This document shows, in pieces, positions 1,993-37,129 of a DNA stretch of 64,000 nucleotides. Where the stretch lies: the sequence record MK373792.1, one strand, 5' to 3'. A program made the position numbers and the translations under genes. Origin of the DNA: Escherichia phage vB_EcoS_VAH1. Position 1 is the stretch's first letter; each line of letters starts with the position of its first letter. The notes under the pieces are model-generated. The model saw nothing but the letters and a program-made list of their open reading frames with translations. It was not told the origin of the DNA and did not search any database.

Positions 1993-2021
1993 ATTATACA
2001 GAATTTAAAGGCATTTAGCAA
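1993..2021 (-). promoter_or_regulatory. T5-type early sigma70 promoter (TTGCTA-N17-TATAAT) reading leftward into the tRNA region
   Basis: On the - strand: TTGCTAAATGCCTTTAAATTCTGTATAAT with AT-rich flanks; one of a repeated promoter family. Confidence 0.6.
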
Positions 2022-2029
2022 ATAAATTT

Positions 2030-2473
2030 TTAATTAAATTCGCCAGCAATCTGAGCAGCAGTACCACCATCATAACGCCCAGGAAATTCTTCCTTAATCG
2101 CTTTCATCAGCATACCTTTTGTAATTCCAGGGTTTAGCTTAACTAATTCTGCAAAGTATTTACGAATCTCAGTATCAGATAACTGAGGAGGCAGATACTC
2201 CTGCAACCACTTATTTAGAATGTATTCATACTGAGCGGACTGCAAGCTATAACTATCAAGATCTTGACCATGAAGTTTAGCTTTCATCTGGTTAATGCTT
2301 TTTAGTTGAGCTTTGAGATAAGACACAAATTGTTCAGAAGTGATGAAATCTTTATCAATACGCTGAAGATCCCCGATTATGGTCTGATAGCTTTTAGCGA
2401 CTTCTTTATCAGAACCATTAAACTTAGAATCCTGCAAAGCTCTACGCAAAACATCTAAAATATTCTCTTCCAT
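2030..2473 (-). CDS. Hypothetical early protein
   Basis: 147-aa ORF; its ATG overlaps the stop of the upstream small ORF (TAATG), suggesting translational coupling. Confidence 0.6.
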   Translation of the reverse strand: MEENILDVLRRALQDSKFNGSDKEVAKSYQTIIGDLQRIDKDFITSEQFVSYLKAQLKSINQMKAKLHGQDLDSYSLQSAQYEYILNKWLQEYLPPQLSDTEIRKYFAELVKLNPGITKGMLMKAIKEEFPGRYDGGTAAQIAGEFN

Positions 2474-2643
2474 TATTTCATTCCTAACGCTTGGTTAAAA
2501 GATTGTTCCGTCATAACTGCTGAGACTTTGGCGAAATCAAACTTTTTAGGGTTCGTAGTGATCTCAGCAACGTTAGAAGTTTTAACAGTTTTCGTAGTAC
2601 GAATACCGCGAGTGTTAACACCAATAATTACAACTGATTTCAT
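2473..2643 (-). CDS. Small hypothetical protein (~56 aa), absent from the ORF track
   Basis: ATG at 2643 preceded by GAGAGGAAG and by the promoter at 2675-2703; stop overlaps the next gene's ATG. Confidence 0.45.
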   Translation of the reverse strand: MKSVVIIGVNTRGIRTTKTVKTSNVAEITTNPKKFDFAKVSAVMTEQSFNQALGMK

Positions 2644-2674
2644 ATTTCGCTTCCTCTCATTAATTTATGGAAGT

Positions 2675-2703
2675 ATTATACGGAAATTTAAGTATTTAAG
2701 CAA
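2675..2703 (-). promoter_or_regulatory. T5-type early promoter (TTGCTT-N17-TATAAT)
   Basis: The -35 and -10 hexamers are spaced 17 nt apart on the - strand, about 30 nt upstream of the ATG at 2643. Confidence 0.55.
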
Positions 2704-2711
2704 GTAAATTT

Positions 2712-3161
2712 TTAAGTTTTAGTGACAACAGGTTTATAAAACGTATGTCCCTTAATCTTAGTTGTTTTCTTAAACTTCTTTGTCCAGTAAGGTTTATCTT
2801 TACCACTATGGAAGTATAGTGCTCCATATGTAGGATCTTGTGGTAAATCAACGTAGTATATCACTCTAGCTAAATTCTTAGCGGTTTGCCAAGCCTCATC
2901 AGTTTTATCAACTTTTGGTCTCTTAGATACCCAAGAGAACTGGTTAGACTGATATACTACTTTACAGTAGGAATCTGGGAATTTACCGGAGTTTACACGG
3001 TTTTTAGTAACGTGTGCAATCGCCGTCATTCCCTTTATGCCCTCACCACGACTTTCGAAATAGATATTTTTAGCAATGCAATCTATTTCTTTTGCATCGT
3101 GCGATGCCTGACTACTAAAGCTGAAGGTAAGGGCAGCTACTAAAAGCAAAGCTGCCTTCAT
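2712..3161 (-). CDS. Secreted cell-wall hydrolase (SleB/Hydrolase_2-like) with signal peptide
   Basis: ORF-track frame 2712..3179; likely start is the ATG at 3161 (MKAALLLVAALTFSFSSQA signal peptide, AGGAG 8 nt upstream); mature region has the FESRGEG motif typical of SleB-type hydrolases. Confidence 0.65.
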   Translation of the reverse strand: MKAALLLVAALTFSFSSQASHDAKEIDCIAKNIYFESRGEGIKGMTAIAHVTKNRVNSGKFPDSYCKVVYQSNQFSWVSKRPKVDKTDEAWQTAKNLARVIYYVDLPQDPTYGALYFHSGKDKPYWTKKFKKTTKIKGHTFYKPVVTKT

Positions 3162-3166
3162 TCTTT

Positions 3167-3484
3167 TTACTCCTGCCAATCATATTCAACACGATTGGGA
3201 TTTTCTTTATACCCTAAGTCAAGCAAATCATTACGCATATTTTGCTTAGCTACTGGGTTCGAGGTTACTAGTACCACTTTCTTTGGTCTCTGCCCAAATT
3301 CTAAGAGTAAGCGAAGAATTTGATAACCTTCCATACCATCTACAGCCAAGTCATTATCCATATAAACGAAATGGCCTGTGGTATCAGTTTTATTCAGAAA
3401 CTCTACAGCGGCTTCTGGGGTTCGAATGATAATGTCCATTCCGTGAAGATTACGCACATCATCAATCAAAATATGAAAAGTCAT
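3167..3484 (-). CDS. Stand-alone receiver (CheY-like REC)-like small protein
   Basis: 105 aa; the pattern ILIDD...YMDNDL...VVLVTSNP resembles the acidic pocket, phospho-acceptor Asp and conserved Thr of receiver domains; weak, by eye. Confidence 0.45.
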   Translation of the reverse strand: MTFHILIDDVRNLHGMDIIIRTPEAAVEFLNKTDTTGHFVYMDNDLAVDGMEGYQILRLLLEFGQRPKKVVLVTSNPVAKQNMRNDLLDLGYKENPNRVEYDWQE

Positions 3485-3514
3485 AATAGCCTCGTTTCAT
3501 CAATTTAAAAATAT

Positions 3515-3543
3515 ATTATACAGATAACTTAGTAAATTAGCAA
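3515..3543 (-). promoter_or_regulatory. T5-type early promoter (TTGCTA-N17-TATAAT)
   Basis: Consensus hexamers with 17-nt spacer on the - strand, about 30 nt upstream of the start at 3484. Confidence 0.6.
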
Positions 3544-3926
3544 ATACATTTTTAAATTGTGAAACTAGTAAACCGATAAACAGCCTAGAGGCGCCACAGG
3601 CCATATCTTACGAGCCATGTACCTTTGATCTAGGGTTTGAATCATCAACGAATACTTTGCATCTTTTAGCTTTAGAAGTTTAGAAGTTTGAGTTCTTTAA
3701 ACTTTTCAGCTTTCATACTTAAATGTTGATCTTTGAAGTTGTGTCGGTAATATCAACGACGCTTTGTTTTTACGTGTCAGATTAAGTGTCTGATGTAATA
3801 AACATAATCTCCAATAGATTATACTTTATAGTATGGTCAGCGGTCTTATTTAACCTCGTATTTCAACCGCTGCTGCGAGGTAAGATGCTTGGGCTTTCGT
3901 CTACCGATTTACTAGCTTTTAAATTA

Positions 3927-4565
3927 TTACTCTACTTCAATGAAGGTAGAGGCGTTAGACTCGGACAGAACAAAGTCAACATTTGTTGCAAAGTCCTGGT
4001 ATTCCTCGTCATGCTGCTTAATCAGCTTTTCCAGTTCCAGCGGATCAATCAAGAATGGAGTATTCTTGAGTTCCAGCAGGTTGAGCTGCATTTTAACTTC
4101 ATCTTCGGAAGTTTTCTTATCGCGGGTAGCCATGCTATCCTGCAAACGCTCATATTTAGCATCAAACTGTGCTTTCTGCGTATTAAACTTAACCGTAGCG
4201 GCATGGAACTGCTTACGCATGTTAGCCAGCAGTTGGGCTTTAAGTTCCATAGAACGCTTAGCTTCAATTGCTTCCGCAACAGTCATCTTACGAGAGCCAA
4301 TCTCAACGATTGTTTCAGCATTGCTTTTAATCAGAGCAGCTTTGATACGATCACGCTGGGACATCATATCCAGGAGAGATTGGAAATCTGCCTTAATACG
4401 AGCGGACAGATCGTCTACTTCGATTGCAGCGCCAACTACAACCTTATTTTTATCCTTACCTTCACCAACAGCGATCAGAAGCTGTTGTTCAGTAGCTTTA
4501 CGGATTTTAGCTTCCAGAGATTTGATAGTTGCCAGAGCGCGAGTTTTAGAAATACGAGTAGTCAT
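3927..4565 (-). CDS. Hypothetical coiled-coil early protein
   Basis: 212-aa ORF with AAGGAA ribosome-binding site; charged, helical composition. Confidence 0.6.
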   Translation of the reverse strand: MTTRISKTRALATIKSLEAKIRKATEQQLLIAVGEGKDKNKVVVGAAIEVDDLSARIKADFQSLLDMMSQRDRIKAALIKSNAETIVEIGSRKMTVAEAIEAKRSMELKAQLLANMRKQFHAATVKFNTQKAQFDAKYERLQDSMATRDKKTSEDEVKMQLNLLELKNTPFLIDPLELEKLIKQHDEEYQDFATNVDFVLSESNASTFIEVE

Positions 4566-4618
4566 TATTTGCTTCCTTATATGAAGTTTGAGATTTGAAT
4601 TTGTTTAAACTTGGTTTA

Positions 4619-4801
4619 TTACAGACCAATTGCCAGCAGAGTGCGCAGAACAGTATCGTTACTGTTATCAATTTTAGGATTAGCACGATTTAGCAGATCA
4701 AAGATTTTCTGGACACCTGATTGACGTTCAGCCATACGACGGATACCCAGATTACGAGTAGCTTTCTTACCATTTTTACGAACATTTTTAGATACTGGCA
4801 T
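4619..4801 (-). CDS. Small basic hypothetical protein (60 aa)
   Basis: ATG with AAAGGAAA ribosome-binding site, directly downstream of the promoter at 4842-4870; Lys/Arg-rich. Confidence 0.5.
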   Translation of the reverse strand: MPVSKNVRKNGKKATRNLGIRRMAERQSGVQKIFDLLNRANPKIDNSNDTVLRTLLAIGL

Positions 4802-4841
4802 ATTTGTTTTCCTTTTATTGTTTTCTCAAATTTATGAATAT

Positions 4842-4870
4842 ATTATACAGAATTTTGGGGCCGGAAGCAA
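4842..4870 (-). promoter_or_regulatory. T5-type early promoter (TTGCTT-N17-TATAAT)
   Basis: Consensus -35/-10 on the - strand between the genes at 4801 and 4872. Confidence 0.6.
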
Positions 4871-4871
4871 A

Positions 4872-5573
4872 TCAAATTTTCATTTTTTCGATCATAGCTG
4901 CAACACAATAGCTTTCAACTAAGGCATCAAATGCAGGATCATGCTTAACCGGATAGATCCCATAACGAATAGTGTCCATCTTCTCCATTTTAGCTATTGC
5001 CCAGCTAATACCTTCGGTCTCTAGAGCCTTATAACTGTATCCAGCTTGCATCCAGAGATTACGAAGAGATCGAACATTACCCAAATTCCAGAATTTCCAC
5101 GGAACTACCTCTTCATTGGTTCCAGCATGGAACGTGTTTGCAGAGTAGATAGTCATATCAAACTCTGGACCATTGCCATAATACAAAGCATTTTCGCCTA
5201 GAGCCAACTCCATAATATTTTGAGCCATAGAGAAGGCAGCATAGTTAGAGCCGAGCTTATTAGTACAGTGATGTTTACCGTCTTGAAAAGCAATCAGCTT
5301 TGGATTGCATTCCCTCATAGCTTCCATAATATGTAGAGCTGATGGACTATTTTTAGCTTGATCCATCCAGAATGCTAGAGTAGATGCCGTAACTTTAGCT
5401 CCAGAATTAAGCTGATCTTGTACATCCAAAATAACAAACACTAGACCAGGATCTTTATCAATTCCGTGCATAGCCACAAAAGCGAAAGAAGGCATTACGA
5501 TATGAGTAGTACCACAATCTCCTGGAGTTCCTAAAGATTCAATATCTAGCATACCAAATGGTTTTACTTTCAT
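4872..5573 (-). CDS. DEDDh-type 3'-5' exonuclease-like protein
   Basis: 233 aa; Exo I-like DIESLG near the N-terminus and Exo III-like HDPAFDA near the C-terminus; AAAGGA ribosome-binding site. Confidence 0.5.
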   Translation of the reverse strand: MKVKPFGMLDIESLGTPGDCGTTHIVMPSFAFVAMHGIDKDPGLVFVILDVQDQLNSGAKVTASTLAFWMDQAKNSPSALHIMEAMRECNPKLIAFQDGKHHCTNKLGSNYAAFSMAQNIMELALGENALYYGNGPEFDMTIYSANTFHAGTNEEVVPWKFWNLGNVRSLRNLWMQAGYSYKALETEGISWAIAKMEKMDTIRYGIYPVKHDPAFDALVESYCVAAMIEKMKI

Positions 5574-5601
5574 AACTTATCCTTTATTGCGTAGAAAACT
5601 A

Positions 5602-5838
5602 TTAAAGAGCTGTCTCTTTAATAGACTCCCACTTCTTGGGGTCTTTAAAACCAGGAAGCATATCCTCACTGACATCCCAGTTCTCTTCCATAGAGAAGTC
5701 AGGCCATTCATTCCAGCTACCTTCCAATTCTTCATAACAGGTATCCATTACCTCATGACTAGAAAGTCGTGTATAATCTCTAGCGGACTTATGAGTGCTA
5801 GCACGGTTAAAATCATTCTTTGCTACAAAATTACGCAT
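5602..5838 (-). CDS. Hypothetical acidic small protein
   Basis: 78-aa ORF with GGAGAAACT ribosome-binding site; Trp/Glu/Asp-rich. Confidence 0.5.
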   Translation of the reverse strand: MRNFVAKNDFNRASTHKSARDYTRLSSHEVMDTCYEELEGSWNEWPDFSMEENWDVSEDMLPGFKDPKKWESIKETAL

Positions 5839-5852
5839 AGTTTCTCCAAACT

Positions 5853-5874
5853 AAGAGGGGCTTTCGCCCCTCTT
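5853..5874 (-). other. Intergenic GC-rich hairpin (attenuator or RNA-processing site) between two early genes
   Basis: Stem AAGAGGGGC/GCCCCTCTT with TTTC loop; no strong U-run, immediately followed by the ribosome-binding site of the next gene. Confidence 0.4.
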
Positions 5875-5879
5875 ATCTA

Positions 5880-6395
5880 TTACTTCGCTTTACATTTACG
5901 AGCTGGTTTAGCAGATTTATGAGCAGAATCGCCCGTGAATTTAATCCCTACACCGTAGCACAGAGCACGAACGTTATCTTTGCTATACTCTACACCGAAG
6001 ATATTTGGCTTAACAGAACCAAACTGTCCACGAGCATCACGCAGTACATCTGCCGTTGGTTTACGCTTCTGGTTAACTGCTTTCTCATAATCTTTCATGG
6101 CCATGCCATTACGAGAGAACAATTCAGCTCCAGCATTGAAACTCAGTGTTACTGGAACAGATTTGTGACCATAACCCTGTACATAGGTCACAAGGCGGGC
6201 TACAGAACGAGTAGCATTCTTAGCCTTCGGCTTTTGACGAATCGGAGCCGGACGATTCAGTGCCTGTGCAGCTTGAGCATCAGTAGGATGCTTGCGCAGG
6301 TGGCGTTCCAGACGAGCTTTGCGGTTAGCCTCAGTCTGCGGGAAAGTTTTAACTGTAGTAGCTGCTTGAGTTTTTGCGTTTTTCTGCTTAGCCAT
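5880..6395 (-). CDS. Hypothetical basic protein
   Basis: 171-aa ORF rich in Lys/Arg/Ala; preferred-codon usage; downstream of the promoter at 6434-6462. Confidence 0.55.
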   Translation of the reverse strand: MAKQKNAKTQAATTVKTFPQTEANRKARLERHLRKHPTDAQAAQALNRPAPIRQKPKAKNATRSVARLVTYVQGYGHKSVPVTLSFNAGAELFSRNGMAMKDYEKAVNQKRKPTADVLRDARGQFGSVKPNIFGVEYSKDNVRALCYGVGIKFTGDSAHKSAKPARKCKAK

Positions 6396-6433
6396 TATTT
6401 GTTTTCCTTTTTGTTTATCAATTTATGAAGTAT

Positions 6434-6462
6434 ATTATACGAGAATTTGAAGCGTTTAGCAA
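6434..6462 (-). promoter_or_regulatory. T5-type early promoter (TTGCTA-N17-TATAAT)
   Basis: Consensus hexamers on the - strand with AT-rich upstream element. Confidence 0.6.
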
Positions 6463-6478
6463 ATGAATTTTTTAAAAA

Positions 6479-6757
6479 TTATCTGCCGACCATCTTAGCT
6501 TGTTCTTCATCAGAAACGTATTGATATGCACCCTTGTTATACGCCGGAGCAGTGCACATCTTCTTACGCTCAATCTCTTCTTGAGCTTTTCTTTCGCGTT
6601 CAGCTAATTCTTCGTCCAGATAAACTAAACGTTGTTCTGGAGGGGGTGGAAGACGTGTTTCTGGCTCACCAATATTAGCCTTTCTTATTTGACGGGGTGA
6701 TTGTGCACGTTTTCTCAACGGTTTAAATCCTAATGAATTTGAGTTATAAATTCGCAT
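6479..6757 (-). CDS. Hypothetical protein
   Basis: 92-aa ORF with its own upstream promoter (6785-6813). Confidence 0.5.
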   Translation of the reverse strand: MRIYNSNSLGFKPLRKRAQSPRQIRKANIGEPETRLPPPPEQRLVYLDEELAERERKAQEEIERKKMCTAPAYNKGAYQYVSDEEQAKMVGR

Positions 6758-6784
6758 AAAGCCCTCCTCACTTTCAATACGAAT

Positions 6785-6813
6785 ATTATACTAAATTAGG
6801 GGGCTTTAAGCAA
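6785..6813 (-). promoter_or_regulatory. T5-type early promoter (TTGCTT-N17-TATAAT)
   Basis: Consensus hexamers on the - strand. Confidence 0.55.
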
Positions 6814-6833
6814 GAAGATTTTTAATTTATTTA

Positions 6834-7322
6834 TTACATCTCAGCCATTTCAGCTTCAGTAATAACTGTGTTACACAATGCATCTACAGCTTCATTACCA
6901 CTAATACCAGAATGTCCTTTAACCTTAATAAAGGTAGGATTAGTATTGTGAAAGTTGATATACTGCTGTGTTAATTTAAATGCTTCCTGCCAAAGTTCTA
7001 GATTAAGAGGGACTTCACCATCTGCTTTCTTCCAGCCTTTCCTTTGCCAAGAAAACATCCAACTTTCCATACCATTTTTGCAATAAGCAGAGTCAGTATA
7101 GATAGCAATTGGTCTATTATCTTTTTTAACAGACCAACGTAGGGCTTCTACGATAGCTGTGAGTTCCATCTCATTATTTGTAGTTTTAGGATTATAACCA
7201 GATTTAGAACCTAAACGATCGTCGTTATCATCATAGACAATAAAACCCCAAGCACCTGGACCTGGATTAGACTTACAAGCACCATCTGTGTAAATGTGGA
7301 AAACCGACATTATACCTCCCAA
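6834..7322 (-). CDS. rnhA: Ribonuclease HI
   Basis: 162 aa; the pattern TDGACKSNPGPGAWG...ELTAI...YTDS...VKGHSGISGNE matches the RNase H catalytic Asp/Glu/Asp/His motifs. Confidence 0.9.
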   Translation of the reverse strand: MGGIMSVFHIYTDGACKSNPGPGAWGFIVYDDNDDRLGSKSGYNPKTTNNEMELTAIVEALRWSVKKDNRPIAIYTDSAYCKNGMESWMFSWQRKGWKKADGEVPLNLELWQEAFKLTQQYINFHNTNPTFIKVKGHSGISGNEAVDALCNTVITEAEMAEM

Positions 7323-7591
7323 CTAATTTTAAGACCCATGTCTACAAAGGCGGCTTCTCGGTAGTATTGTGAGAGATGATACCCCTTATCCGATAAGGTT
7401 TTTAGTACCGATTTAGCTGCTCCTGGCATTTCTCTAGGATTATATAGCCACCTAGCGTAAGGATTATCTCGAATAATTACTTCTGTATTTCCAGACTTAG
7501 CAGCTTCTACAATCTTTTCTTCTATAAACTTTAGAAATGCGGGTACTTCTGTTAATCCTGCAAGTTCTTGGGCTTCTTTGGCTGAAATCAT
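7310..7591 (-). CDS. Hypothetical protein
   Basis: 93-aa ORF overlapping the RNase H start (operon-like), downstream of the promoter at 7617-7645. Confidence 0.5.
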   Translation of the reverse strand: MISAKEAQELAGLTEVPAFLKFIEEKIVEAAKSGNTEVIIRDNPYARWLYNPREMPGAAKSVLKTLSDKGYHLSQYYREAAFVDMGLKISWEV

Positions 7592-7616
7592 TGTATACCT
7601 CCAATTTATAAAATAT

Positions 7617-7645
7617 ATTATAGTTAAATTTCACTAAATAAGCAA
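7617..7645 (-). promoter_or_regulatory. T5-type early promoter (TTGCTT-N17-TATAAT)
   Basis: Consensus hexamers on the - strand. Confidence 0.55.
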
Positions 7646-7660
7646 ATGAAATTTAAATAT

Positions 7661-7680
7661 AATAGCCCCGAAGGGCTATT
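7661..7680 (-). terminator. Hairpin terminator after thyA
   Basis: Stem AATAGCCC/GGGCTATT with CGAA loop, immediately 3' of the thyA stop, AT-rich flank. Confidence 0.5.
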
Positions 7681-7684
7681 TAAG

Positions 7685-8524
7685 TTAAGAGGACATTTTA
7701 GCTTTAAGAGCCGGATGCGGATCATATCCTTCAAGCTGGAAGGACCAAGCTGCCGTATTATTTTCTAATAAATCGTAAAGATCTACAAACTCTGGCATTA
7801 CTAGAGTTGGTAAAGAGCGAGGTTTACGTTTTACCTGTTCTTCTACCTGTTCCATATGGTCATTATAGATATGAGTGTCACCACCACTAAAGATAAGATA
7901 GCGAGGTTTTAATCCTGTCAGTTTTGCTAATATATGCGTTAATAAAGCATAACTAGCGATATTGAAAGGTAAACCGAGGAAACAATCTACAGAACGTTGT
8001 GTCCATTTAAGATCTAGGTATCCATCGTTACTTACATAGCACTGGAAGCCGTAGTGACAGGGTGGTAATGCCATCTTATCCAGTTCAGCAACGTTCCATG
8101 CAGATACTAGATGTCTGCGGCCATGGGGGTTATTCTTGAGTCCTTCAATAAGTTCTAGAATCTGATCTCGTCCACCAAAGTTACGCCACTGTTTACCATA
8201 TACTGGTCCTAGATTACCCTTATCATACCCCATACTTATAGCTTGGTCTTCATAATTTGGAGTCCAGATGGTCCACTGTCCTTCGTCACGACCAAATGTG
8301 AATACACGTAGATCATGAAGATTTGTGGAACCAGACAAGAACCATAAAAGTTCTCCTACTACTGATTTCCAGGCTAGGCGTTTAGTAGTTACAGCCGGGA
8401 ACCCTTCACGTAGATCGAATTTAGCATAGGAATCAAAAATTGAAACTGTGCCTGTTCCTGTACGGTCATTACGGGGTTCACCTAGTAAAATTACATCTGT
8501 CAAAATTTTTAAGTATTGTTGCAT
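7685..8524 (-). CDS. thyA: Thymidylate synthase
   Basis: 279 aa; active-site region PPCHYGFQCYV and overall ThyA signature. Confidence 0.95.
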   Translation of the reverse strand: MQQYLKILTDVILLGEPRNDRTGTGTVSIFDSYAKFDLREGFPAVTTKRLAWKSVVGELLWFLSGSTNLHDLRVFTFGRDEGQWTIWTPNYEDQAISMGYDKGNLGPVYGKQWRNFGGRDQILELIEGLKNNPHGRRHLVSAWNVAELDKMALPPCHYGFQCYVSNDGYLDLKWTQRSVDCFLGLPFNIASYALLTHILAKLTGLKPRYLIFSGGDTHIYNDHMEQVEEQVKRKPRSLPTLVMPEFVDLYDLLENNTAAWSFQLEGYDPHPALKAKMSS

Positions 8525-9057
8525 TAATAAGTAACCAATTCCTGTACAAATCGCAGGCTGTTATCACTGTTTGCGCCAACTGCATAGACTAATCGAGTGG
8601 ATTCATAGTTATAATCCAGTATTATACTATCTAGGTGTATATCTGCCTCTAGCTTCTGTTCGCTAAAGATTGTAGATACAAAAGCACTTTCTATATGCCC
8701 ATGTTGGTACATTTCTAGAAGAAGATTAGCTCCGCCTAGAACTACTGTTTGCTGATCTTTTAGAAAGGTAGGTAATGTATCACCTATCATTGATATGGGA
8801 GTGTAAATATCATGTGTAATATCGTCTGGTAGTGGACGATCAGCACGAATAAATAGGTCAGAAGCTCCAATCATACGTTCCCTAACGGCATATGGAAGAG
8901 CTAAATAAGTACCTGCCCCAATAATAATATTATCAGGATTTAGTACATCTAATTGTGAATAAAAAGCATCTAGTTCTTCTTTAAAAGAACCCCAGGGAAG
9001 CTTACCTCGGAGGCCGAACTCCCCATTCGGCCCAACTGCATACATTGCTGTAATCAT
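8524..9057 (-). CDS. frd: Dihydrofolate reductase
   Basis: 177 aa; DHFR-like N-terminus (IGxxGxLPW pattern); stop/start overlaps with thyA and nrdB. Confidence 0.8.
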   Translation of the reverse strand: MITAMYAVGPNGEFGLRGKLPWGSFKEELDAFYSQLDVLNPDNIIIGAGTYLALPYAVRERMIGASDLFIRADRPLPDDITHDIYTPISMIGDTLPTFLKDQQTVVLGGANLLLEMYQHGHIESAFVSTIFSEQKLEADIHLDSIILDYNYESTRLVYAVGANSDNSLRFVQELVTY

Positions 9058-10230: not shown

Positions 10231-10259
10231 ATTATAGCAAATCTGGTAGCGATTAGCAA
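10231..10259 (-). promoter_or_regulatory. T5-type early promoter (TTGCTA-N17-TATAAT) for nrdB
   Basis: Consensus hexamers on the - strand, about 30 nt upstream of the nrdB ATG. Confidence 0.6.
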
Positions 10260-12674: not shown

Positions 12675-12703
12675 ATTCTACTTTATTATTGGTCATTAGG
12701 CAA
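12675..12703 (-). promoter_or_regulatory. Early promoter (TTGCCT-N17-TAGAAT) for nrdA
   Basis: Near-consensus hexamers on the - strand, about 35 nt upstream of the revised nrdA start. Confidence 0.45.
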
Positions 12704-13808: not shown

Positions 13809-13837
13809 ATTATAACAAGGTTTACAGCAAAAAGCAA
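13809..13837 (-). promoter_or_regulatory. T5-type early promoter (TTGCTT-N17-TATAAT) for phoH
   Basis: Consensus hexamers on the - strand in an AT-rich divergent promoter region. Confidence 0.55.
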
Positions 13838-14009: not shown

Positions 14010-14038
14010 TTGACGTATGGGGTGGAATTATGTATAAT
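14010..14038 (+). promoter_or_regulatory. Sigma70 promoter (TTGACG-N17-TATAAT)
   Basis: Near-perfect consensus 21 nt upstream of the ATG at 14060. Confidence 0.65.
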
Positions 14039-16551: not shown

Positions 16552-16589
16552 AGCCGGGTTGCTAGTCGACCTGGCTTTTATTTTATTTG
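16552..16589 (+). terminator. Rho-independent terminator after nrdD
   Basis: Stem AGCCGGG/CCTGGCT followed by TTTTATTTTATTT; overlaps the -35 of the next promoter. Confidence 0.5.
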
Positions 16590-16615
16590 CTTTCAGCCAA
16601 AAATTTATATATAAT
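16587..16615 (+). promoter_or_regulatory. PN25-like strong early promoter (TTGCTT-N17-TATAAT, then AGATTTATAAATTTGAGAGGAG)
   Basis: Resembles the T5 N25 promoter as I recall it, including the downstream CATAAAT-like region and GAGAGGAG ribosome-binding site. Confidence 0.65.
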
Positions 16616-20059: not shown

Positions 20060-20589
20060 CATTTGCAAGGGAGTATTATTTTATAGTATAATATTCCCAT
20101 AAATGAGAGACATTAGTAAAAATTGATTTTGCTAATTTTTCTTGTTTACAATCCGCGATACGGAACAGTTAGGCTGCCCCATTAAGGGTTGTTTTAACTG
20201 TTACGTGTTAGTTTTTAAACAAATAGTTAATAGAATACTTAGCGATCTGCGTCCCGTAGGAACCCTGGTAAGGCCTCGAAGCAACCTAGATAGAGGTGGT
20301 TGTGAAGTGAGACGGGAGGAGTGAAAAACTCCGAGACGTGATTCTGTAAGTTATATTGCATCTAGTATGAGCTAGTATATGAAGCATTAGGTGAGCAAAT
20401 CTGGCTTAGCGGCCATCCTCAAGGATTTGTGCGGTATAGCAAAGCAGCAGCGCAGCGTGAGAGTGGAAGTTGCCACCCCACTTCAGTATTTGAGATTAAT
20501 TTGTTGAGAAATTGACAGTAACAGTTGTTCTATTCTTTCTGAATAGTCCTAAAGAAAACTTATTTCATTTCCAACACAGGAGTATTGTT
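20060..20589 (+). other. ORF-free, GC-richer structured region (promoter plus long leader; candidate ncRNA, origin or intron remnant)
   Basis: About 520 bp without a credible ORF; promoter-like TTGCAA...TATAAT near 20075-20110; hairpins AACAGTTA/TAACTGTT, GGAGT-GAAAA-ACTCC, GAAGT/ACTTC; direct repeat GAGACG. Confidence 0.4.
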
Positions 20590-24174: not shown

Positions 24175-24203
24175 TTGCTTTACGATGAATTTTTCTGTAT
24201 AAT
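24175..24203 (+). promoter_or_regulatory. PN25-like strong early promoter
   Basis: TTGCTTTACGATGAATTTTTCTGTATAATAGATTCATAAATTTGAGAGAGGAGTT; matches the T5 N25 promoter as I recall it. Confidence 0.7.
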
Positions 24204-25200: not shown

Positions 25201-25229
25201 TTGCTTAATCCTACAATTCTTGATATAAT
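25201..25229 (+). promoter_or_regulatory. Sigma70 promoter (TTGCTT-N17-TATAAT)
   Basis: Consensus hexamers upstream of the gene at 25287. Confidence 0.55.
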
Positions 25230-26417: not shown

Positions 26418-26446
26418 TTGCTTTCAACTCAGTTTTGTTATATAAT
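26418..26446 (+). promoter_or_regulatory. Sigma70 promoter (TTGCTT-N17-TATAAT) for the ligase N-terminal ORF
   Basis: Consensus hexamers about 30 nt upstream of the ATG at 26478. Confidence 0.6.
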
Positions 26447-27453: not shown

Positions 27454-27585
27454 CCCTTTGCTACCCATCTACCGTATCGGAATTATGGTTATTGACATTT
27501 CGCCGCTTAGGTATATATACTATTATCATTCAGTTGAGGGATAGAAAGTTATGGCGAGGGTAAGCAAAGTTAGTTAAAATTGTAG

Positions 27586-27614
27586 TTGCTAAATGCTTAA
27601 ATACTTGCTATAAT
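27586..27614 (+). promoter_or_regulatory. Sigma70 promoter (TTGCTA-N17-TATAAT) for the ligase C-terminal ORF
   Basis: Consensus hexamers in the 190-bp gap between the ligase parts. Confidence 0.6.
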
Positions 27615-29201: not shown

Positions 29202-29235
29202 AAGGGGAGGGGGCTATGCTCCTTCCCCTTTTTGC
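29202..29235 (+). terminator. Rho-independent terminator
   Basis: Stem AAGGGGAGGG/CCTTCCCCTT (one mismatch) followed by a U-run; the track ORF's ATG at 29216 lies in the loop. Confidence 0.6.
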
Positions 29236-30739: not shown

Positions 30740-31269
30740 TAACACAGGAAAGGCTAAAAGAGTTATTTGATTACTCCCCAGGAACTGGGGAGTTTACTAG
30801 AAAAGTATCTAGAGGTAATCAGAAAGCTGGTAGTATAGCTGGTTCTTTAAGAAAAGATGATTATATATGTATATGGGTAGATGGAAAGCCTTACTATGCG
30901 CATCAACTAGCTTTTCTCTATATGGAAGGTTATTTACCTGAAGAAGTAGACCATATAAACCGTATACGAAGTGATAATCGTTGGGTTAACCTTAAAGATT
31001 CTTCTCACCAAGAGAATAGCAGGAATAAAGCAGCTAAAAGTAAATCAGGGTATATAGGAGTTAGTTGGAATAAACAAAGGCAAAAATGGCAAGTTCAACT
31101 AAGAGATACCAATAAAAAGAAAATATTCGGTGGATATTTTGAGTACCAGAATTTAGAATCAGCCGTAGATAAGATTAATAAGCTACGATTACAATTTCAT
31201 GGGGAAAATGCTATTCAAGAAATATTCGACCCGTCTAATTATCCTGCATTAGAGGAGATAAATTCATGA
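30736..31269 (+). CDS. HNH homing endonuclease (HNH_3 + AP2)
   Basis: 177 aa; N-terminus MITQERLKEL shared with the ORF at 38324; HQLAFLYMEGYLPEEVDHINR. Confidence 0.8.
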   Translation: MITQERLKELFDYSPGTGEFTRKVSRGNQKAGSIAGSLRKDDYICIWVDGKPYYAHQLAFLYMEGYLPEEVDHINRIRSDNRWVNLKDSSHQENSRNKAAKSKSGYIGVSWNKQRQKWQVQLRDTNKKKIFGGYFEYQNLESAVDKINKLRLQFHGENAIQEIFDPSNYPALEEINS

Positions 31270-32156
31270 GTAGAATAACAGAATTACTTGATCTTAAGGG
31301 AATTGAGTATAAAGATACTGGTGGAGATATTTTAATCTGTTGCTTAAATCCAGATCATGATGATAAACACCCAAGTTTGCGTATTGATCCTGAAACCGGG
31401 ATTATGCACTGCTTGAGTTGCGGGTTTGGCAAAGGTATACCTAGTATTTATCATTATTTTAATGAGACTCAATATAGACAATCTCCAAGACTATCCCAAG
31501 TACGTAAAAAGATTTCAGAGATTAGAAATGGATCTACGAATCTTGCAATCCCAGAATCTGCCTGCCTTTTCGAAGGTGATTTCCGAGGTATCAGTTCTAA
31601 GACCTTGAAGAAATATTTTGCTTTCCAACATCAAGAGAACTGGGAAGGCAGAATTGTATTCCCAATCACAGATGCTGTTGGACGCAATATCCTATTTTTG
31701 GGTCGTTCTATAAACAGTTCTGCCCCTCCTAAATACTTAGTAAAACCAAAACAAGTTTCACCACCGATTTTCCCTGTACGATATAATACTCCAGTTCTTG
31801 TTCTAGTTGAAGGTATCTTTGATATGCTGAACCTAGAGGATAATGGTATAGACTATGCTTCTTGCTGCTTTGGTACACATCAGTTTACCTCGGATAACAT
31901 TGCAGATAAGTTCAGTCCGTATATTATTGCTGGTGTTAAAGTTGTTGTTATCTTACTAGATAATGATGCTTCTGGTAATAAAGCCGCACAAGCACTGGCT
32001 AAGCTAATTCGTACAAAAACGCGTTTAACACCTGTAGTTGCTAACTTTCTTCTGCCTGAAGGTAAAGACCCAGGTGACTTAAATAAAGAAGAAATTGATA
32101 TGTTAGCAAAACGTATTGAAATTTTAGTTGCTGAATCGCTTAAAGATTTGGTATAA
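31266..32156 (+). CDS. DNA primase (DnaG-like, CHC2 zinc finger + Toprim)
   Basis: 296 aa; zinc finger CLNPDHDDKHPSLRI...CLSCGFGKG; Toprim-like EG..D region. Confidence 0.8.
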   Translation: MSRITELLDLKGIEYKDTGGDILICCLNPDHDDKHPSLRIDPETGIMHCLSCGFGKGIPSIYHYFNETQYRQSPRLSQVRKKISEIRNGSTNLAIPESACLFEGDFRGISSKTLKKYFAFQHQENWEGRIVFPITDAVGRNILFLGRSINSSAPPKYLVKPKQVSPPIFPVRYNTPVLVLVEGIFDMLNLEDNGIDYASCCFGTHQFTSDNIADKFSPYIIAGVKVVVILLDNDASGNKAAQALAKLIRTKTRLTPVVANFLLPEGKDPGDLNKEEIDMLAKRIEILVAESLKDLV

Positions 32157-32182
32157 TAGTCCTAAATAACTGAGGAGCTACT

Positions 32183-32512
32183 ATGGAATATGTATATATT
32201 TATGCGGATGTTCCAGTGTATGATAGTATAACACACAAAGAGGTTAAACTAGAGCGGTTTACAACACTGGAGTCCCTTAATAAACGAAAGAATTTCCATT
32301 TATTTGGTGATCCTAAATTACCTGCATCTTATATTTACTTTAAAGTAAAAGATACAGGTCAAGAGGTATACCTAACATATGATTGGGCTGTTGTAGAAAA
32401 TACTGAGCAATCTATGAAAGCGCTAGATGCTTTTCTGCGTATAGATGAAGAATTTCGGGTACTAGAAAAGCAGCGCAATGAAATGCGTAAATTACTACAT
32501 ACCTATAAATAG
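32183..32512 (+). CDS. Hypothetical protein
   Basis: 109-aa ORF with GAGGAG ribosome-binding site. Confidence 0.55.
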   Translation: MEYVYIYADVPVYDSITHKEVKLERFTTLESLNKRKNFHLFGDPKLPASYIYFKVKDTGQEVYLTYDWAVVENTEQSMKALDAFLRIDEEFRVLEKQRNEMRKLLHTYK

Positions 32513-32515
32513 TAT

Positions 32516-32544
32516 TTGCTATTATCCCAATATTTTGATATAAT
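32516..32544 (+). promoter_or_regulatory. Sigma70 promoter (TTGCTA-N17-TATAAT) upstream of the DNA polymerase gene
   Basis: Consensus hexamers about 60 nt upstream of the pol start. Confidence 0.6.
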
Positions 32545-32605: not shown

Positions 32606-35173
32606 TTGAAAATCGCAGTAGTTGATAAAGCTCTAAATAACACTCGTTATGATAAACATTTCCAGCTATACGGCGAGGAAGTTGATGTATTCCATATGTG
32701 TAACGAGAAGTTGTCCGGTCGTTTGCTCAAAAAGCATATTACTATAGGGACTCCGGAAAACCCATTTGACCCGAATGATTATGATTTTGTTATACTGGTA
32801 GGTGCCGAACCTTTCCTGTACTTTGCAGGTAAGAAAGGTATTGGTGATTATACTGGTAAACGTGTAGAGTATAATGGATATGCTAACTGGATTGCGAGTA
32901 TCAGCCCAGCCCAGTTACACTTTAAACCTGAAATGAAACCAGTTTTTGATGCAACAGTAGAGAATATCCACGATATTATCAATGGTCGTGAGAAGATTGC
33001 AAAAGCTGGTGATTACCGTCCTATTACTGACCCTGATGAGGCAGAAGAATATATCAAGATGGTGTATAATATGGTTATCGGACCTGTCGCATTCGACTCC
33101 GAAACCTCAGCACTATACTGTCGAGATGGTTATCTACTTGGTGTTTCTATATCTCACCAAGAGTATCAGGGTGTATATATCGATTCTGATTGCCTCACAG
33201 AGGTTGCAGTATATTACCTCCAGAAAATCCTGGATAGTGAAAACCACACTATTGTTTTTCACAACTTGAAGTTTGATATGCACTTTTATAAGTACCATCT
33301 GGGACTTACTTTTGATAAAGCACATAAAGAACGCAGGCTCCATGATACCATGTTGCAGCACTATGTTCTAGATGAACGTCGTGGTACTCATGGCTTGAAA
33401 TCTCTAGCAATGAAGTATACCGATATGGGTGACTATGACTTTGAACTAGATAAGTTCAAAGATGATTACTGCAAAGCACATAAAATCAAGAAAGAAGATT
33501 TCACCTATGATTTAATTCCGTTTGATATTATGTGGCCTTACGCTGCGAAAGATACAGATGCCACCATACGTTTGCACAACTTCTTCTTACCAAAGATTGA
33601 GAAGAATGAAAAACTTTGCAGTCTGTATTACGATGTTTTGATGCCTGGTTGCGTATTCTTGCAACGTGTTGAAGATCGTGGTGTACCTATTTCTATCGAT
33701 CGTTTAAAAGAAGCTCAGTATCAGTTAACCCATAATCTGAATAAAGCCCGTGAGAAACTGTACACTTATCCAGAAGTTAAACAGCTAGAACAAGATCAGA
33801 ATGAAGCGTTTAACCCGAACTCTGTTAAGCAGCTGCGCGTTCTTCTGTTTGATTACGTTGGCTTAACTCCAACAGGTAAACTGACGGATACTGGAGCAGA
33901 TTCTACAGATGCAGAAGCTCTGAATGAGCTGGCTACGCAGCATCCAATTGCTAAAACTCTACTAGAGATTCGTAAGCTGACTAAGCTGATCTCTACTTAT
34001 GTTGAGAAGATTCTACTGAGTATTGATGCAGATGGTTGCATTCGTACTGGTTTCCATGAACATATGACTACTTCTGGTCGTCTGAGTTCTTCTGGTAAAC
34101 TGAACCTGCAACAGCTACCTCGTGATGAATCTATTATCAAGGGTTGTGTAGTTGCACCACCTGGATACCGTGTAATCGCGTGGGACTTAACAACTGCGGA
34201 AGTTTACTATGCTGCTGTTCTATCTGGGGATAGAAATATGCAACAGGTATTTATCAACATGAGAAATGAACCCGATAAATACCCAGACTTCCACTCTAAC
34301 ATCGCCCACATGGTATTTAAATTGCAATGTGAACCTCGTGATGTTAAGAAGCTGTTCCCAGCTCTACGTCAGGCAGCTAAGGCAATTACCTTTGGTATTT
34401 TGTATGGTTCTGGCCCGGCTAAAGTAGCACATTCTGTTAACGAAGCATTGCTCGAACAAGCAGCCAAAACTGGGGAACCGTTTGTTGAATGTACTGTTGC
34501 AGATGCTAAAGAGTACATTGAGACTTACTTTGGTCAATTCCCACAGCTTAAGCGTTGGATTGATAAGTGCCACGATCAGATCAAGAATCATGGATTTATC
34601 TATAGTCACTTTGGTCGTAAACGTCGTCTGCATAATATCCATTCCGAAGACCGTGGTGTTCAGGGTGAAGAAATTCGTTCTGGATTTAACGCAATCATTC
34701 AGTCTGCTTCTTCTGATAGTCTCCTTTTAGGTGCTGTAGATGCAGATAATGAGATCATTTCTCTTGGTTTAGAACAAGAGATGAAGATTGTTATGTTGGT
34801 TCATGACTCCGTAGTTGCTATTGTTCGTGAGGATTTGATCGACCAATACAATGAAATCCTGATTCGTAATATTCAGAAAGACCGTGGTATCAGTATTCCT
34901 GGCTGTCCGATTGGTATTGATTCAGATTCTGAAGCCGGGGGTTCTCGTGACTATTCTTGTGGTAAGATGAAGAAACAGCACCCATCAATTGCTTGTATTG
35001 ATGATGATGAATATACTCGTTACGTTAAAGAAATGCTACTTGATGCAGATTTCGAGTATAAGAAACTAGCTGCGATGGATAAAGAGCATCCAGACCACAG
35101 CAAGTACAAGGATGATAAGTTTATTGCTGTATGTAAAGATCTGGATAACGTGAAAAGGATTCTCGGTGCTTAA
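32606..35173 (+). CDS. DNA polymerase, family A (T5-type, 855 aa), TTG start
   Basis: 855 aa from a TTG with AAGAGGAG ribosome-binding site; N-terminal 3'-5' exonuclease and C-terminal Pol I-like polymerase domains. Confidence 0.9.
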   Translation: MKIAVVDKALNNTRYDKHFQLYGEEVDVFHMCNEKLSGRLLKKHITIGTPENPFDPNDYDFVILVGAEPFLYFAGKKGIGDYTGKRVEYNGYANWIASISPAQLHFKPEMKPVFDATVENIHDIINGREKIAKAGDYRPITDPDEAEEYIKMVYNMVIGPVAFDSETSALYCRDGYLLGVSISHQEYQGVYIDSDCLTEVAVYYLQKILDSENHTIVFHNLKFDMHFYKYHLGLTFDKAHKERRLHDTMLQHYVLDERRGTHGLKSLAMKYTDMGDYDFELDKFKDDYCKAHKIKKEDFTYDLIPFDIMWPYAAKDTDATIRLHNFFLPKIEKNEKLCSLYYDVLMPGCVFLQRVEDRGVPISIDRLKEAQYQLTHNLNKAREKLYTYPEVKQLEQDQNEAFNPNSVKQLRVLLFDYVGLTPTGKLTDTGADSTDAEALNELATQHPIAKTLLEIRKLTKLISTYVEKILLSIDADGCIRTGFHEHMTTSGRLSSSGKLNLQQLPRDESIIKGCVVAPPGYRVIAWDLTTAEVYYAAVLSGDRNMQQVFINMRNEPDKYPDFHSNIAHMVFKLQCEPRDVKKLFPALRQAAKAITFGILYGSGPAKVAHSVNEALLEQAAKTGEPFVECTVADAKEYIETYFGQFPQLKRWIDKCHDQIKNHGFIYSHFGRKRRLHNIHSEDRGVQGEEIRSGFNAIIQSASSDSLLLGAVDADNEIISLGLEQEMKIVMLVHDSVVAIVREDLIDQYNEILIRNIQKDRGISIPGCPIGIDSDSEAGGSRDYSCGKMKKQHPSIACIDDDEYTRYVKEMLLDADFEYKKLAAMDKEHPDHSKYKDDKFIAVCKDLDNVKRILGA

Positions 35174-35181
35174 TTTCAAAT

Positions 35182-35208
35182 TGCCCGTATATGCTTTACG
35201 GGCATTTG
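35182..35208 (+). terminator. Terminator-like hairpin after the polymerase gene
   Basis: Stem TGCCCGTA/TACGGGCA followed by a weak TTTGTAT run. Confidence 0.4.
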
Positions 35209-35375
35209 TATCAATTGAGCAAGAAGGTGATTATTCCGTAATTACAACAAGATATAATAAATATGTGCTAGATAACAGGAAGTTGCCTGGTACTTTTTCT
35301 CAACGTAGGCTTATTCTATTTGAGAAACGGAAAGAATTACCATACAAGCTCTATCCTATTAGAGGTAGAATATCA

Positions 35376-35663
35376 ATGTTGTCTCAATTAGTTGGGTCAA
35401 AGCGTAGCCAATTTATAGATTCTGATGGAAATCTTATTAACTGGAAGAAAACTACGTTCTATGATGTTGTCACCTCTAAAGTTTTGCATTCAGCTAGAAT
35501 TTATAACGGAAAATACCAATGCTATGTAGCTAAAGTTCCATATCCATTTGTATTATCCTATGTTCCAGCTTATATAAGCTATATTCTGGTAAATAATAGC
35601 CCTGTTATTTATCAAGTCCATCAAGAGGAGCCTGAAATTCCTAGACTTAGAATAAAATTATGA
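35376..35663 (+). CDS. Hypothetical protein (start uncertain)
   Basis: Track ORF 35166..35663 begins over the terminator; the internal ATG at about 35376 has a GAGGT ribosome-binding site. Confidence 0.3.
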   Translation: MLSQLVGSKRSQFIDSDGNLINWKKTTFYDVVTSKVLHSARIYNGKYQCYVAKVPYPFVLSYVPAYISYILVNNSPVIYQVHQEEPEIPRLRIKL

Positions 35664-35812
35664 AGGTTGTTATATCTAATAAAGCCTATTTCAAGCCCGA
35701 TGATGAACTTTGGGATTATTGTAGTAAGCAAACCACTTATCACATAGAGACAATGACTAGTAAATACCCTATTATGTATAAGAATAGTGGTGTTGTTGCC
35801 CAAAGAGATTAA
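35660..35812 (+). CDS. DExH-box helicase, N-terminal fragment (about 50 aa; absent from the ORF track)
   Basis: ATG overlaps the upstream stop (ATGA); MKVVISNKAYFKPDDELWDYCSKQTTYHIETMTSKYPIMYKNSGVVAQRD*; the frame shifts at a GCCC run into the next fragment. Confidence 0.4.
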   Translation: MKVVISNKAYFKPDDELWDYCSKQTTYHIETMTSKYPIMYKNSGVVAQRD

Positions 35813-36239
35813 GTGGATTCCTATTACGCGTCTGGACTTATTAGATGCTAAAGGAATAAAATACGAATTAGTCGATAAACGCACATTAGCTCCAGTAGAT
35901 ATACCAAAACCTGAGTTCAAGCTGCGTGAAGAAGACCAGCTCCCAATATATAAAGAGTGTGATGATACCTGTATTATTAATGGTAAGCCTGGATTTGGTA
36001 AAACTATCCTAGCCCTTGCACTTGCGTATAAATTTGGCCAGAAAACTTTGGTAATCTGTACAAATACATCCATACGTGAAATGTGGGCGGCAGAAGTTCG
36101 TAAATGGTTTGGGTTTGAACCAGGCATCATAGGTTCTGGGAAGTACAATATTGATCCACCAATTGTAGTCAGCAATATTCAAACAGTAAATAAACATGCG
36201 AATAATCTTTCTAAAGTATTCGGTACTGTTTATAGTTGA
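35787..36239 (+). CDS. SF2 DExH-box helicase (D10-like), fragment with motif I
   Basis: No ribosome-binding site at the track start; Walker A GKPGFGKT; ends ...KVFGTVYS* at a GTTT run. Confidence 0.7.
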   Translation: MVLLPKEIKWIPITRLDLLDAKGIKYELVDKRTLAPVDIPKPEFKLREEDQLPIYKECDDTCIINGKPGFGKTILALALAYKFGQKTLVICTNTSIREMWAAEVRKWFGFEPGIIGSGKYNIDPPIVVSNIQTVNKHANNLSKVFGTVYS

Positions 36240-37014
36240 TGAAGTTCACCATTGTGTGGCTACAACTTTCACTAATTTCCTAGAAATATCATGTGCTCGC
36301 TATAAAATTGGACTATCCGGTACACTAAAACGAAAAGATGGTTTACAAGTTATGTTCAAAGATTTCTTTGGATATAAGATATTTAGCCCGCCGGTTAATA
36401 ATACTGTTGCACCTACAATCCATAGGTACTCCGTGCCTGTTGAGCTATCAGGAAACCAAAACGTGCCGTGGGCATTACGTGCTAACGATGTGTATAATCA
36501 TCCTGAATATCGAGAGACTATTATAAACCTAGCACATTTATATGTGAATATGGGGCATAAAGTACTCATTGTAAGTGATAGAACAGAGTTAATCCAAACA
36601 GTACTAGAAGCTCTTACGCAGCGGGGTGTTACAACATATGAAATTATAGGGGCAACCCACTTAGATGACCGATTAAAAATTCAGGAAGATATAGCAAAAG
36701 GTGGGCCTTGTGTACTTGCAGCAGCTCAAAGTATCTTCTCTGAAGGTATTTCTCTTAATGAGCTATCTTGTTTAATAATGGGAAGCCTCATTAATAATGA
36801 ATCTCTCATTGAACAGCTTGCAGGCCGTGTTCAACGTATTGTCGATGGTAAACTCGACCCTATTGTTGTAGATCTAATTATGAAAGGTGGCACTGGACTA
36901 AGACAGGCTTCTGGACGTATGGCAGTATATCGTAACAACGGGTGGAAAACTATTACTATGACCCCGGAGAAAGCAGTTCAATTAGCTAAAATTGCATTTG
37001 GCAACAGCTCATAA
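36196..37014 (+). CDS. SF2 DExH-box helicase (D10-like), fragment with motifs II-VI
   Basis: Begins ...FIVDEVHH (motif II), then SGT (motif III) and QLAGRVQR (motif VI); frame is +1 relative to the previous fragment. Confidence 0.7.
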   Translation: MRIIFLKYSVLFIVDEVHHCVATTFTNFLEISCARYKIGLSGTLKRKDGLQVMFKDFFGYKIFSPPVNNTVAPTIHRYSVPVELSGNQNVPWALRANDVYNHPEYRETIINLAHLYVNMGHKVLIVSDRTELIQTVLEALTQRGVTTYEIIGATHLDDRLKIQEDIAKGGPCVLAAAQSIFSEGISLNELSCLIMGSLINNESLIEQLAGRVQRIVDGKLDPIVVDLIMKGGTGLRQASGRMAVYRNNGWKTITMTPEKAVQLAKIAFGNSS

Positions 37015-37026
37015 ATGATGTATAAT
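36998..37026 (+). promoter_or_regulatory. Putative promoter (TTGGCA-N17-TATAAT) within the helicase 3' end
   Basis: Followed by CATAAATTTGAGAGAGAGAAAG, which resembles the PN25 downstream region. Confidence 0.45.
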
Positions 37027-37099
37027 ATATACATAAATTTGAGAGAGAGAAAGTTTCGGATTGATAAGAAAGTCCGAAGCAGAAAAATAAAAATTTTAG

Positions 37100-37129
37100 T
37101 TGCTAAATTCTCTCGAAATCTAGTATAAT
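37100..37129 (+). promoter_or_regulatory. Sigma70 promoter (TTGCTA-N18-TATAAT)
   Basis: Followed by CATAAATTCGAGGAG; upstream of the genes at 37237 and 37514. Confidence 0.55.

Follow-up and report, generated by a model that had tools for sequence, protein, structure and literature searches.

The 64,000-nucleotide stretch of Escherichia phage vB_EcoS_VAH1 (VAH1; record MK373792.1) analysed here, called the window below, carries an array of repeated promoter motifs. We conclude, with a probability of about 0.94, that the repeats form the early promoter class of a T5-like phage and are read by the unmodified host sigma70 RNA polymerase after entry of the main part of the genome. The basis for this conclusion is the motif pattern, its placement and orientation, and its orthology to annotated T5 promoters, some of which have been mapped experimentally. 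Since the late 1970s and 1980s the early promoters of T5 have served as textbook cases of very strong sigma70 promoters, and many commonly used expression vectors are built on one of them, PN25. Gentz and Bujard in 1985, and the Bujard and Ksenzenko laboratories, are said to have defined the set.

The motif TTGCTW-N17-TATAAT was found in 15 exact copies in the window against 0.10 expected, and dinucleotide-preserving shuffles never contained more than one. Nine copies are on the minus strand (1993-13837) and six on the plus strand (16587-32544), and all 15 lie at the coordinates given in an earlier note on this DNA, so that the repeated motif described there is real. Permitting one mismatch yielded just two extra, unrelated sites. 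A weight-matrix scan of the kind proposed in that note was performed with a two-block position matrix built from the 15 exact copies, on both strands of the 64 kb and with 30 shuffles as control. The matrix recovered the 15 copies, followed by sites at 37100 (score 51.9), 36998 (47.0) and 32128 (24.8), while the best score in the shuffles was 10; beyond these 18 sites nothing in the 64 kb scored above 20, and weak matches were located at 52724, 13887 and 12675. With two sites added by comparison with T5 (20063 and 27492), the early promoters in 1-43.6 kb number about 22.

The promoter motif is about 75 nt long. Besides the two hexamers it comprises an A-tract near -43, ATATT in the discriminator and, at the start of transcription, ATAAATTtGAGAGG, which leads into the ribosome-binding site. 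The A-tract is found about 7-10 nt 5' of the -35 box, columns -10 to -7 (counted from the first -35 base) being A in 11-15 of the 15 copies. TATAAT is directly followed by an A in all 15 copies, and the discriminator consensus after it reads A-T-A-T-T, with agreement in 15, 12, 9, 11 and 10 copies, respectively. The start region ATAAATT is in turn followed by a purine-rich run that constitutes the ribosome-binding site (columns 36-47). In columns that had not been used for selection, the 15 copies far exceeded random 15-site sets in information content, with 14.3 versus 3.2 bits upstream, 9.3 versus 2.7 bits in the spacer and 19.6 versus 4.7 bits downstream (z = 12-21 across regions), whereas the flanks of the 73 other TATAAT occurrences in the window were as low in information as the random sets. 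The promoter segments have an A+T content of 77%. The copies are not near-identical, as had been claimed for them: on average, two copies agree at 55% of positions over 79 nt and at 47% when the hexamers are left aside.

The class pattern TTGCTw/TATAAT(A) with a 17-18 bp spacer was found in the 15 exact copies, in 37100 (18 bp) and in 32128 (TTGCTG, 18 bp); the 18-bp spacers of the latter two agree with T5. Deviant -35 boxes occur at 12675, 14010, 20063 and 36998, and 27492 is of the TTGACA/TATACT type. The single consensus that the earlier note ascribed to all its sites thus applies to 15 of them and not to 12675 (TTGCCT/TAGAAT), 14010 (TTGACG), 36998 (TTGGCA) or 37100 (18-bp spacer), although all four of these sites exist.

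The VAH1 window is DNA of a T5-like coliphage/Salmonella phage (Tequintavirus) and is about 95% identical to T5 in its early region. Megablast searches with 14-24 kb and 1-25 kb matched E. coli and Salmonella phages of the T5 type by the several hundred. The closest record is Escherichia phage ESCO40 (95.8% identity, 94% query coverage), and colinear alignments of 94-97% with T5 st0 (AY692264) extend over most of window positions 2440-43720. A map of open reading frames (ORFs) and the GC skew delineate three blocks. The first, at 1-13.9 kb, is early and leftward (nucleotide metabolism: thyA, dhfR, nrdAB, phoH-like); the second, at 14-43.6 kb, is early and rightward (nrdD, D2, D3, ligase, helicase, primase, polymerase, D10-D15, dUTPase); and the third, which starts at 43.7 kb, is late, structural and leftward. 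Where the early and late blocks converge, between the dUTPase end of the former and the tail fibre side of the latter, there is a strong bidirectional terminator hairpin (43614-43650; 14-16 bp stem, T-runs on both strands).

For 1-43650 we compiled a gene list of 57 protein genes, with 9.3% of the DNA non-coding. The -10 box lies in non-coding DNA for 21 of the 22 sites, and all 22 are co-oriented with the local gene block; for the exact copies both hold in 15 of 15 cases, with nominal chances of ~3e-16 (location) and ~3e-5 (orientation). The leader, measured from the predicted +1 up to the following start codon, is 15-61 nt long in 17 of the 22 sites. The early note's phrase 'one per early gene' overstates the density, since about 22 promoters serve about 57 protein genes and one RNA operon, or approximately one promoter per 2.6 genes, in transcription units of 1 to ~9 genes. 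Terminator-like hairpins are present directly 5' of five promoters (7617, 10231, 12675, 16587 and 26418), with a weaker one before 24175 and a hairpin lacking a U-tail before 37100, and the remaining ~15 promoters have no hairpin directly upstream. The matrix scan detected no early-type site in the late block (43.7-64 kb).

Twenty of the 22 sites correspond one-to-one with promoter features of T5 AY692264 or AY543070, the exceptions being 12675 and 36998, while 32128 and 32516 share the T5 promoter Ppol. The named T5 promoters matched are P16-17, P-D/E33, P-H207, P-N25, P-N26, P-K28a and P-K28b; the others are 'putative promoter' features. This orthology bears out the proposal that the sites are sigma70-type early-gene promoters: 17 of the 19 sites originally listed are T5-annotated promoters (six named, eleven 'putative promoter'), again without 12675 and 36998. 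Three sites, all on the plus strand, were absent from that list (20063, 27492 and 32128). The 22 sites are as follows, with T5 coordinates being those of the annotated features.

1993..2021, minus strand: P16-17 equivalent; exact motif; the T5 wild-type record AY543070 has P16-17, RNAX and tRNA-Arg at the homologous place.
2675..2703, minus strand: P-D/E33 orthologue; exact motif; alignment score 67 of 75.
3515..3543, minus strand: orthologue of T5 putative promoter 34860-34927; exact motif; alignment score 71 of 75.
4842..4870, minus strand: orthologue of T5 putative promoter 36186-36253; exact motif, T5 alignment.
6434..6462, minus strand: P-H207 orthologue; 75/75 nt identical to the T5 feature.
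6785..6813, minus strand: orthologue of T5 putative promoter 38131-38197; exact motif; alignment score 73 of 75.
7617..7645, minus strand: positional equivalent of T5 putative promoter 38720-38785; exact motif; terminator-like hairpin upstream (7661-7680).
10231..10259, minus strand: nrdB-dhfR-thyA promoter, orthologue of T5 putative promoter 41858-41921; exact motif; terminator-like hairpin upstream (10277-10298).
12675..12703, minus strand: probable and weaker nrdA promoter, TTGCCT-17-TAGAAT; matrix score 12.4; no T5 annotation.
13809..13837, minus strand: head of the leftward block (phoH-like gene), orthologue of T5 putative promoter 45431-45497; exact motif.
14010..14038, plus strand: head of the rightward block, TTGACG-17-TATAAT, positional equivalent of T5 putative promoter 45686-45752; lacks TTGCTW and ATATT.
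16587..16615, plus strand: PN25-resembling, orthologue of T5 putative promoter 47660-47727 (AY692264); 50/75 nt to PN25; terminator upstream (16552-16576).
20063..20092, plus strand: TTGCAA-18-TATAAT, upstream of D2 (helicase/origin-binding gene); positional equivalent of T5 putative promoter 50951-51018.
24175..24203, plus strand: P-N25 orthologue upstream of D3; 62/75 nt overall, 42/42 from -22 to +20.
25201..25229, plus strand: P-N26 orthologue; 75/75 nt identical.
26418..26446, plus strand: ligA promoter, orthologue of T5 putative promoter 57237-57304; 75/75 nt identical; terminator upstream (26373-26401).
27492..27521, plus strand: P-K28b orthologue, TTGACA-18-TATACT, in tandem with P-K28a.
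27586..27614, plus strand: P-K28a orthologue upstream of ligB; 75/75 nt identical.
32128..32157, plus strand: upstream half of the T5 DNA-polymerase promoter Ppol (T5 62954-63022), TTGCTG-18-TATAAT; drives the 109-aa ORF cassette.
32516..32544, plus strand: promoter directly upstream of the DNA polymerase gene; exact motif; from the -10 box on, the downstream half of T5 Ppol.
36998..37026, plus strand: first of the tandem pair upstream of the D11 operon, TTGGCA-17-TATAAT; matrix score 47; no T5 annotation.
37100..37129, plus strand: second of the D11 tandem pair, TTGCTA-18-TATAAT, orthologue of T5 putative promoter 67535-67603; score 76 over a 76-nt segment; matrix score 51.9.

The VAH1 sites resemble the T5 early promoters in lying at the same positions by the same genes and in sharing the same extended consensus, and in five of them the full segment is identical to T5 (P-H207, P-N26, P-K28a, the ligA promoter and the D11-operon promoter). 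Differences from T5 are seen at a few sites. The upstream half of 24175 differs because of an HNH endonuclease gene (23596-24168) that is inserted right next to it. A cassette with the 109-aa ORF splits the polymerase promoter in two. Divergence from T5 is also seen at 7617 and 14010, in the case of 7617 past about +2 because a cassette with a 93-aa ORF is located there. Of the two PN25-like copies that had been proposed, 24175 is indeed the P-N25 orthologue, with a predicted start at the A at 24210 (+1 taken from the -12/+2 oligonucleotide in PMC7472727); 16587 does resemble PN25, but it is orthologous to a different T5 promoter, the one at 47660, which is itself PN25-like.

Two named late promoters are also present in the window, each 75/75 identical to T5: P-G25 at 52723-52752 and P-J5 at 59905-59934, both on the minus strand. 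These late promoters of T5 are likewise of the sigma70 type, with -35 boxes TTGATA and TTGACA, and are situated in the late structural block. Unlike the early set, the copies in the window lack TTGCTW, the ATATT discriminator and the ATAAATT start.

Published work on T5-like phages is in agreement with these findings. Niu et al. (2012) listed 32 promoters in the T5-like phage AKFV33, with TTGCTw, TATAATA, a 17-18 bp spacer, AAAAATT at -43 and TAAATT at +1, and noted the high host-polymerase affinity of T5-like promoters (PMC3326045). Their consensus is identical to the one derived from VAH1, whereas their count covers the whole genome including pre-early and late promoters, as compared with about 22 early and two named late promoters in the VAH1 window. 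In T5, host sigma70 polymerase transcribes all three temporal classes (Klimuk et al. 2020; PMC7472727). Primer extension detected 11 of the 19 in-vitro promoters of Gentz and Bujard plus four additional products, and the Ppol product was found to be early by this method (PMC7472727). ATATT is present in the discriminator of all known T5 early promoters and separates early from late ones, and an UP element is present as well (PMC7472727). Our literature search did not find a genome-wide transcription-start map of T5. Since T5 records annotate these promoters and the consensus has been published for T5-like phages, the pattern described in the earlier note was already known; as judged from sequence, the VAH1 motif array is the classic published T5 early promoter set and biologically nothing new.

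To gauge conservation across the Demerecviridae, the window-derived matrix was applied to ~42 kb surrounding the polymerase gene in each of four relatives. The relatives were Klebsiella phage Sealy (78% identity in the polymerase protein), Providencia phage PR1 (67%), Vibrio phage phi3 (58%) and Vibrio phage D116 (49%). Each locus contained 5-12 matrix sites, all on the gene strand, and several of these are syntenic: before ligB, the polymerase gene, the D11 operon and D3, and in the divergent phoH/nrdD region. The sites of the relatives share the A-tract, the TTGC-type -35 box, the 17-bp spacer, TATAAT and the ATAAATT-like start, and the tandem promoters before the D11 operon recur in Sealy, PR1 and phi3, with a single copy in D116. 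The syntenic architecture across four relatives therefore marks the array as a family trait under selection. The records of these four phages annotate few or none of these promoters.

Several individual sites merit comment. Promoter 1993 drives about 800 nt without a convincing ORF (1180-1990, minus strand) and then tRNA-Arg (1105-1179), with no protein gene. The stretch 3' of this promoter is homologous to the T5 feature 'RNAX, stable RNA with unknown functions', and a tRNA-like element at 1683-1754 scored 35.5 bits in Rfam, above the gathering score, while ARAGORN made no call there. An Rfam scan of 1-44 kb returned just tRNA-Arg, one tRNA-like element and sub-threshold noise, and no known RNA family overlapping the promoters.

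Promoter 12675 is preceded by a strong terminator hairpin (12723-12752; -24.2 kcal/mol, z = -5.4). In the relatives from Klebsiella, Providencia and Vibrio, the alignment of NrdA begins at the ATG at 12636 (MSHRIEKVIKRDG...), which is preceded by a Shine-Dalgarno sequence. The annotated 811-aa NrdA ORF (T5p094 in T5 AY692264; ESCO40_00092) thus appears to be 35 codons too long, and the over-extension (12637-12752, minus strand) holds both the hairpin and the promoter.

At the D11 tandem pair, the D10 helicase gene extends with its 3' end into 36998, over the -35 box and part of the spacer. Between 36998 and 37100 there is a hairpin (37054-37079; TTTCGGA...TCCGAA) that is followed by an A-rich run and has no U-tail. 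Its 3' arm and downstream sequence are kept in Klebsiella phage Sealy (~24546-24565 of the scanned locus, L004), where the loop is shorter and the pairing is preserved. This hairpin may serve as a site of processing or as part of the leader.

Some observations weigh against reading the sites as early-class promoters used by the host polymerase. Sites 12675 and 13887 are weak, with matrix scores of 12-13, and 14010 and 27492 have TTGAC-type -35 boxes without the ATATT/ATAAATT signature; the latter two may therefore represent another kinetic class. No overall enrichment was seen when sigma70-like sites were scanned for loosely and generically (42, 64 and 34 sites versus 56, 60 and 62 expected in shuffles), which means that the signal resides entirely in the specific T5-type motif and matrix. 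Individual spacer lengths are possibly off by one because the window has 1-nt indels relative to T5 in essential genes. Finally, the proposed promoter function in VAH1 rests on orthology to T5.

The indels concern ligA (26478-27452), with six single-base indels and a 3-nt deletion relative to T5, and the D10 helicase gene (35660-37014), with two single-base insertions. Several of them are at short homopolymer runs, and both essential genes are split into 2-3 ORFs; these frameshifts look more like errors of sequencing or assembly than like genuine pseudogenes. In the loose scan, sigma70-like hexamer pairs were depleted at 40001-60000, in the late region (34 versus 62 +/- 8 in shuffles), and mildly so in 1-20 kb (42 versus 56 +/- 6), which suggests selection against spurious promoters.

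If the sites do act as T5-type early promoters, the following mechanism may be envisaged; initiation in VAH1, very fast polymerase binding and the roles of the discriminator and transcribed region are deduced here from the T5 literature and established promoter biology. The A-tract near -43 would serve as an UP-like contact, and the perfect -10 box, TATAAT(A), together with optimal spacing, would offset the 4/6 consensus match of the TTGCTW -35 box. The A/T-rich ATATT discriminator and start would favour quick open-complex formation, with initiation predicted at an A about 7 nt past the -10 box. The conserved initial transcribed sequence ATAAATTtGAGAGG may affect promoter escape and runs into the Shine-Dalgarno sequence, which gives leaders of about 20-35 nt. 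The transcribed region could thus also function as a leader rich in A and U that contains a strong ribosome-binding site. Together with the discriminator, it may in addition have a role in early-to-late switching. Overall, the ~22 units would partition the two divergent early blocks into short operons, several of them directly behind an intrinsic-terminator hairpin.

A possible, though tentative, extension that is compatible with this explanation is that the ATATT discriminator and the ATAAATTtGAGAG start are elements through which phage regulators switch early transcription off. These columns are strongly conserved beyond the hexamers and across the family, and they are missing from the late P-G25 and P-J5 in the window. 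Moreover, the RNA-polymerase-binding protein gpT5.026 of T5 weakens polymerase contacts at -5/+2, and its loss leads to higher early and lower late transcript levels (PMC7472727). However, the in-vitro effect of gpT5.026 is small (two-fold or less) and the switch persists without it (PMC7472727). The conserved transcribed region also overlaps the 5' untranslated region and ribosome-binding site, so that translation signals or promoter-escape kinetics could explain its conservation. If regulator elements were indeed present, the array would be a regulon signature and not a strength signature alone.

It seems unlikely that the promoters, with or without a terminator hairpin, double as homology patches for shuffling gene cassettes among T5-like genomes, in the manner of the promoter-early stem-loop (PeSL) cassettes that act as recombination linkers in T4-type phages (PMC2839356, PMC4122927). 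The VAH1 units may resemble PeSLs in that repeated early sigma70 promoters border small variable genes, and terminator-like hairpins precede five or six of the promoters. The most suggestive case is the 109-aa ORF (phrog_35630) between primase and polymerase, whose cassette (32158-32544) is the only one flanked by promoters on both sides (32128 and 32516). T5 has a single promoter here, whose upstream half is that of 32128 and whose downstream half is that of 32516, the crossover falling within TATAATA, and this single-promoter state was found in 37 of 37 IMG/VR relatives fetched around the polymerase gene. Three more differences from T5 or ESCO40 start within a few nt of a promoter +1 (7609, 10224-10229 and 26467). 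In contrast to the PeSLs, the VAH1 junctions show no statistical excess at promoters: 6-7 of 14 indel or replacement events relative to T5 and ESCO40 touch a promoter, where ~35% of gene boundaries carry one (binomial P = 0.19-0.36). Most variable cassettes are, furthermore, homing endonuclease genes of the HNH or T5orf172 type, which explain the mosaic junctions without a role for promoters. The 109-aa ORF was found in 50 phage records, once per record, and at the primase-polymerase junction in the three records checked (ESCO40, SP15 and DaisyDussoix). These 50 records, and the 37 relatives that lack the ORF at the polymerase gene, gave no sign of its moving between promoters, and such mobility is therefore not supported. 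Because the junction excess is not significant and homing genes dominate, a PeSL-like role is possible but unsupported. If true, it would mean cassette gain and loss by recombination at promoter units, which has not been described for T5-like phages.

Five homing-endonuclease-type ORFs are present in the window, at 14060-14731, 19548-20054, 23596-24168, 30736-31269 and 38324-38800. One has T5orf172/treble-clef domains and four are HNH_3, and together they account for the majority of insertions relative to T5 or ESCO40. Three directly adjoin a promoter (14010, 20063 and 24175).

The idea, put forward in the earlier note, that the array is mainly a sink that titrates host RNA polymerase off host promoters is still harder to sustain, and we consider it improbable. 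With ~22 strong sites per genome copy some titration is conceivable, but every site has a gene or RNA operon in need of expression on its downstream side, in the same orientation and at a distance of 15-60 nt (in rare cases 100-200 nt), and the window has no orphan copies. In addition, the pre-early (first-step-transfer) functions of T5 shut off host expression and degrade host DNA (PMC10644984; PMC7472727), and the A1 annotation in the T5 record is consistent with such a role. This takes place before the promoter-bearing DNA enters, when little host template is left; since host expression is already shut off by then, sequestration is not needed for the array. Chance matches in A/T-rich intergenic DNA, for which the 77% A+T of the promoter segments and the shuffle-like frequency of loose sigma70-like matches might speak, are ruled out by the 15 copies versus 0.1 in dinucleotide-preserving shuffles, as well as by the flank information, the perfect orientation and the conservation in distant relatives.

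What the assignment of these sites as host-read, T5-type early promoters provides is a transcription-unit map of the VAH1 window, with ~22 early promoters, several terminators and two named late promoters. Useful by-products are the correction of the nrdA annotation and the finding that the promoter architecture is conserved as far as the Vibrio Demerecviridae.

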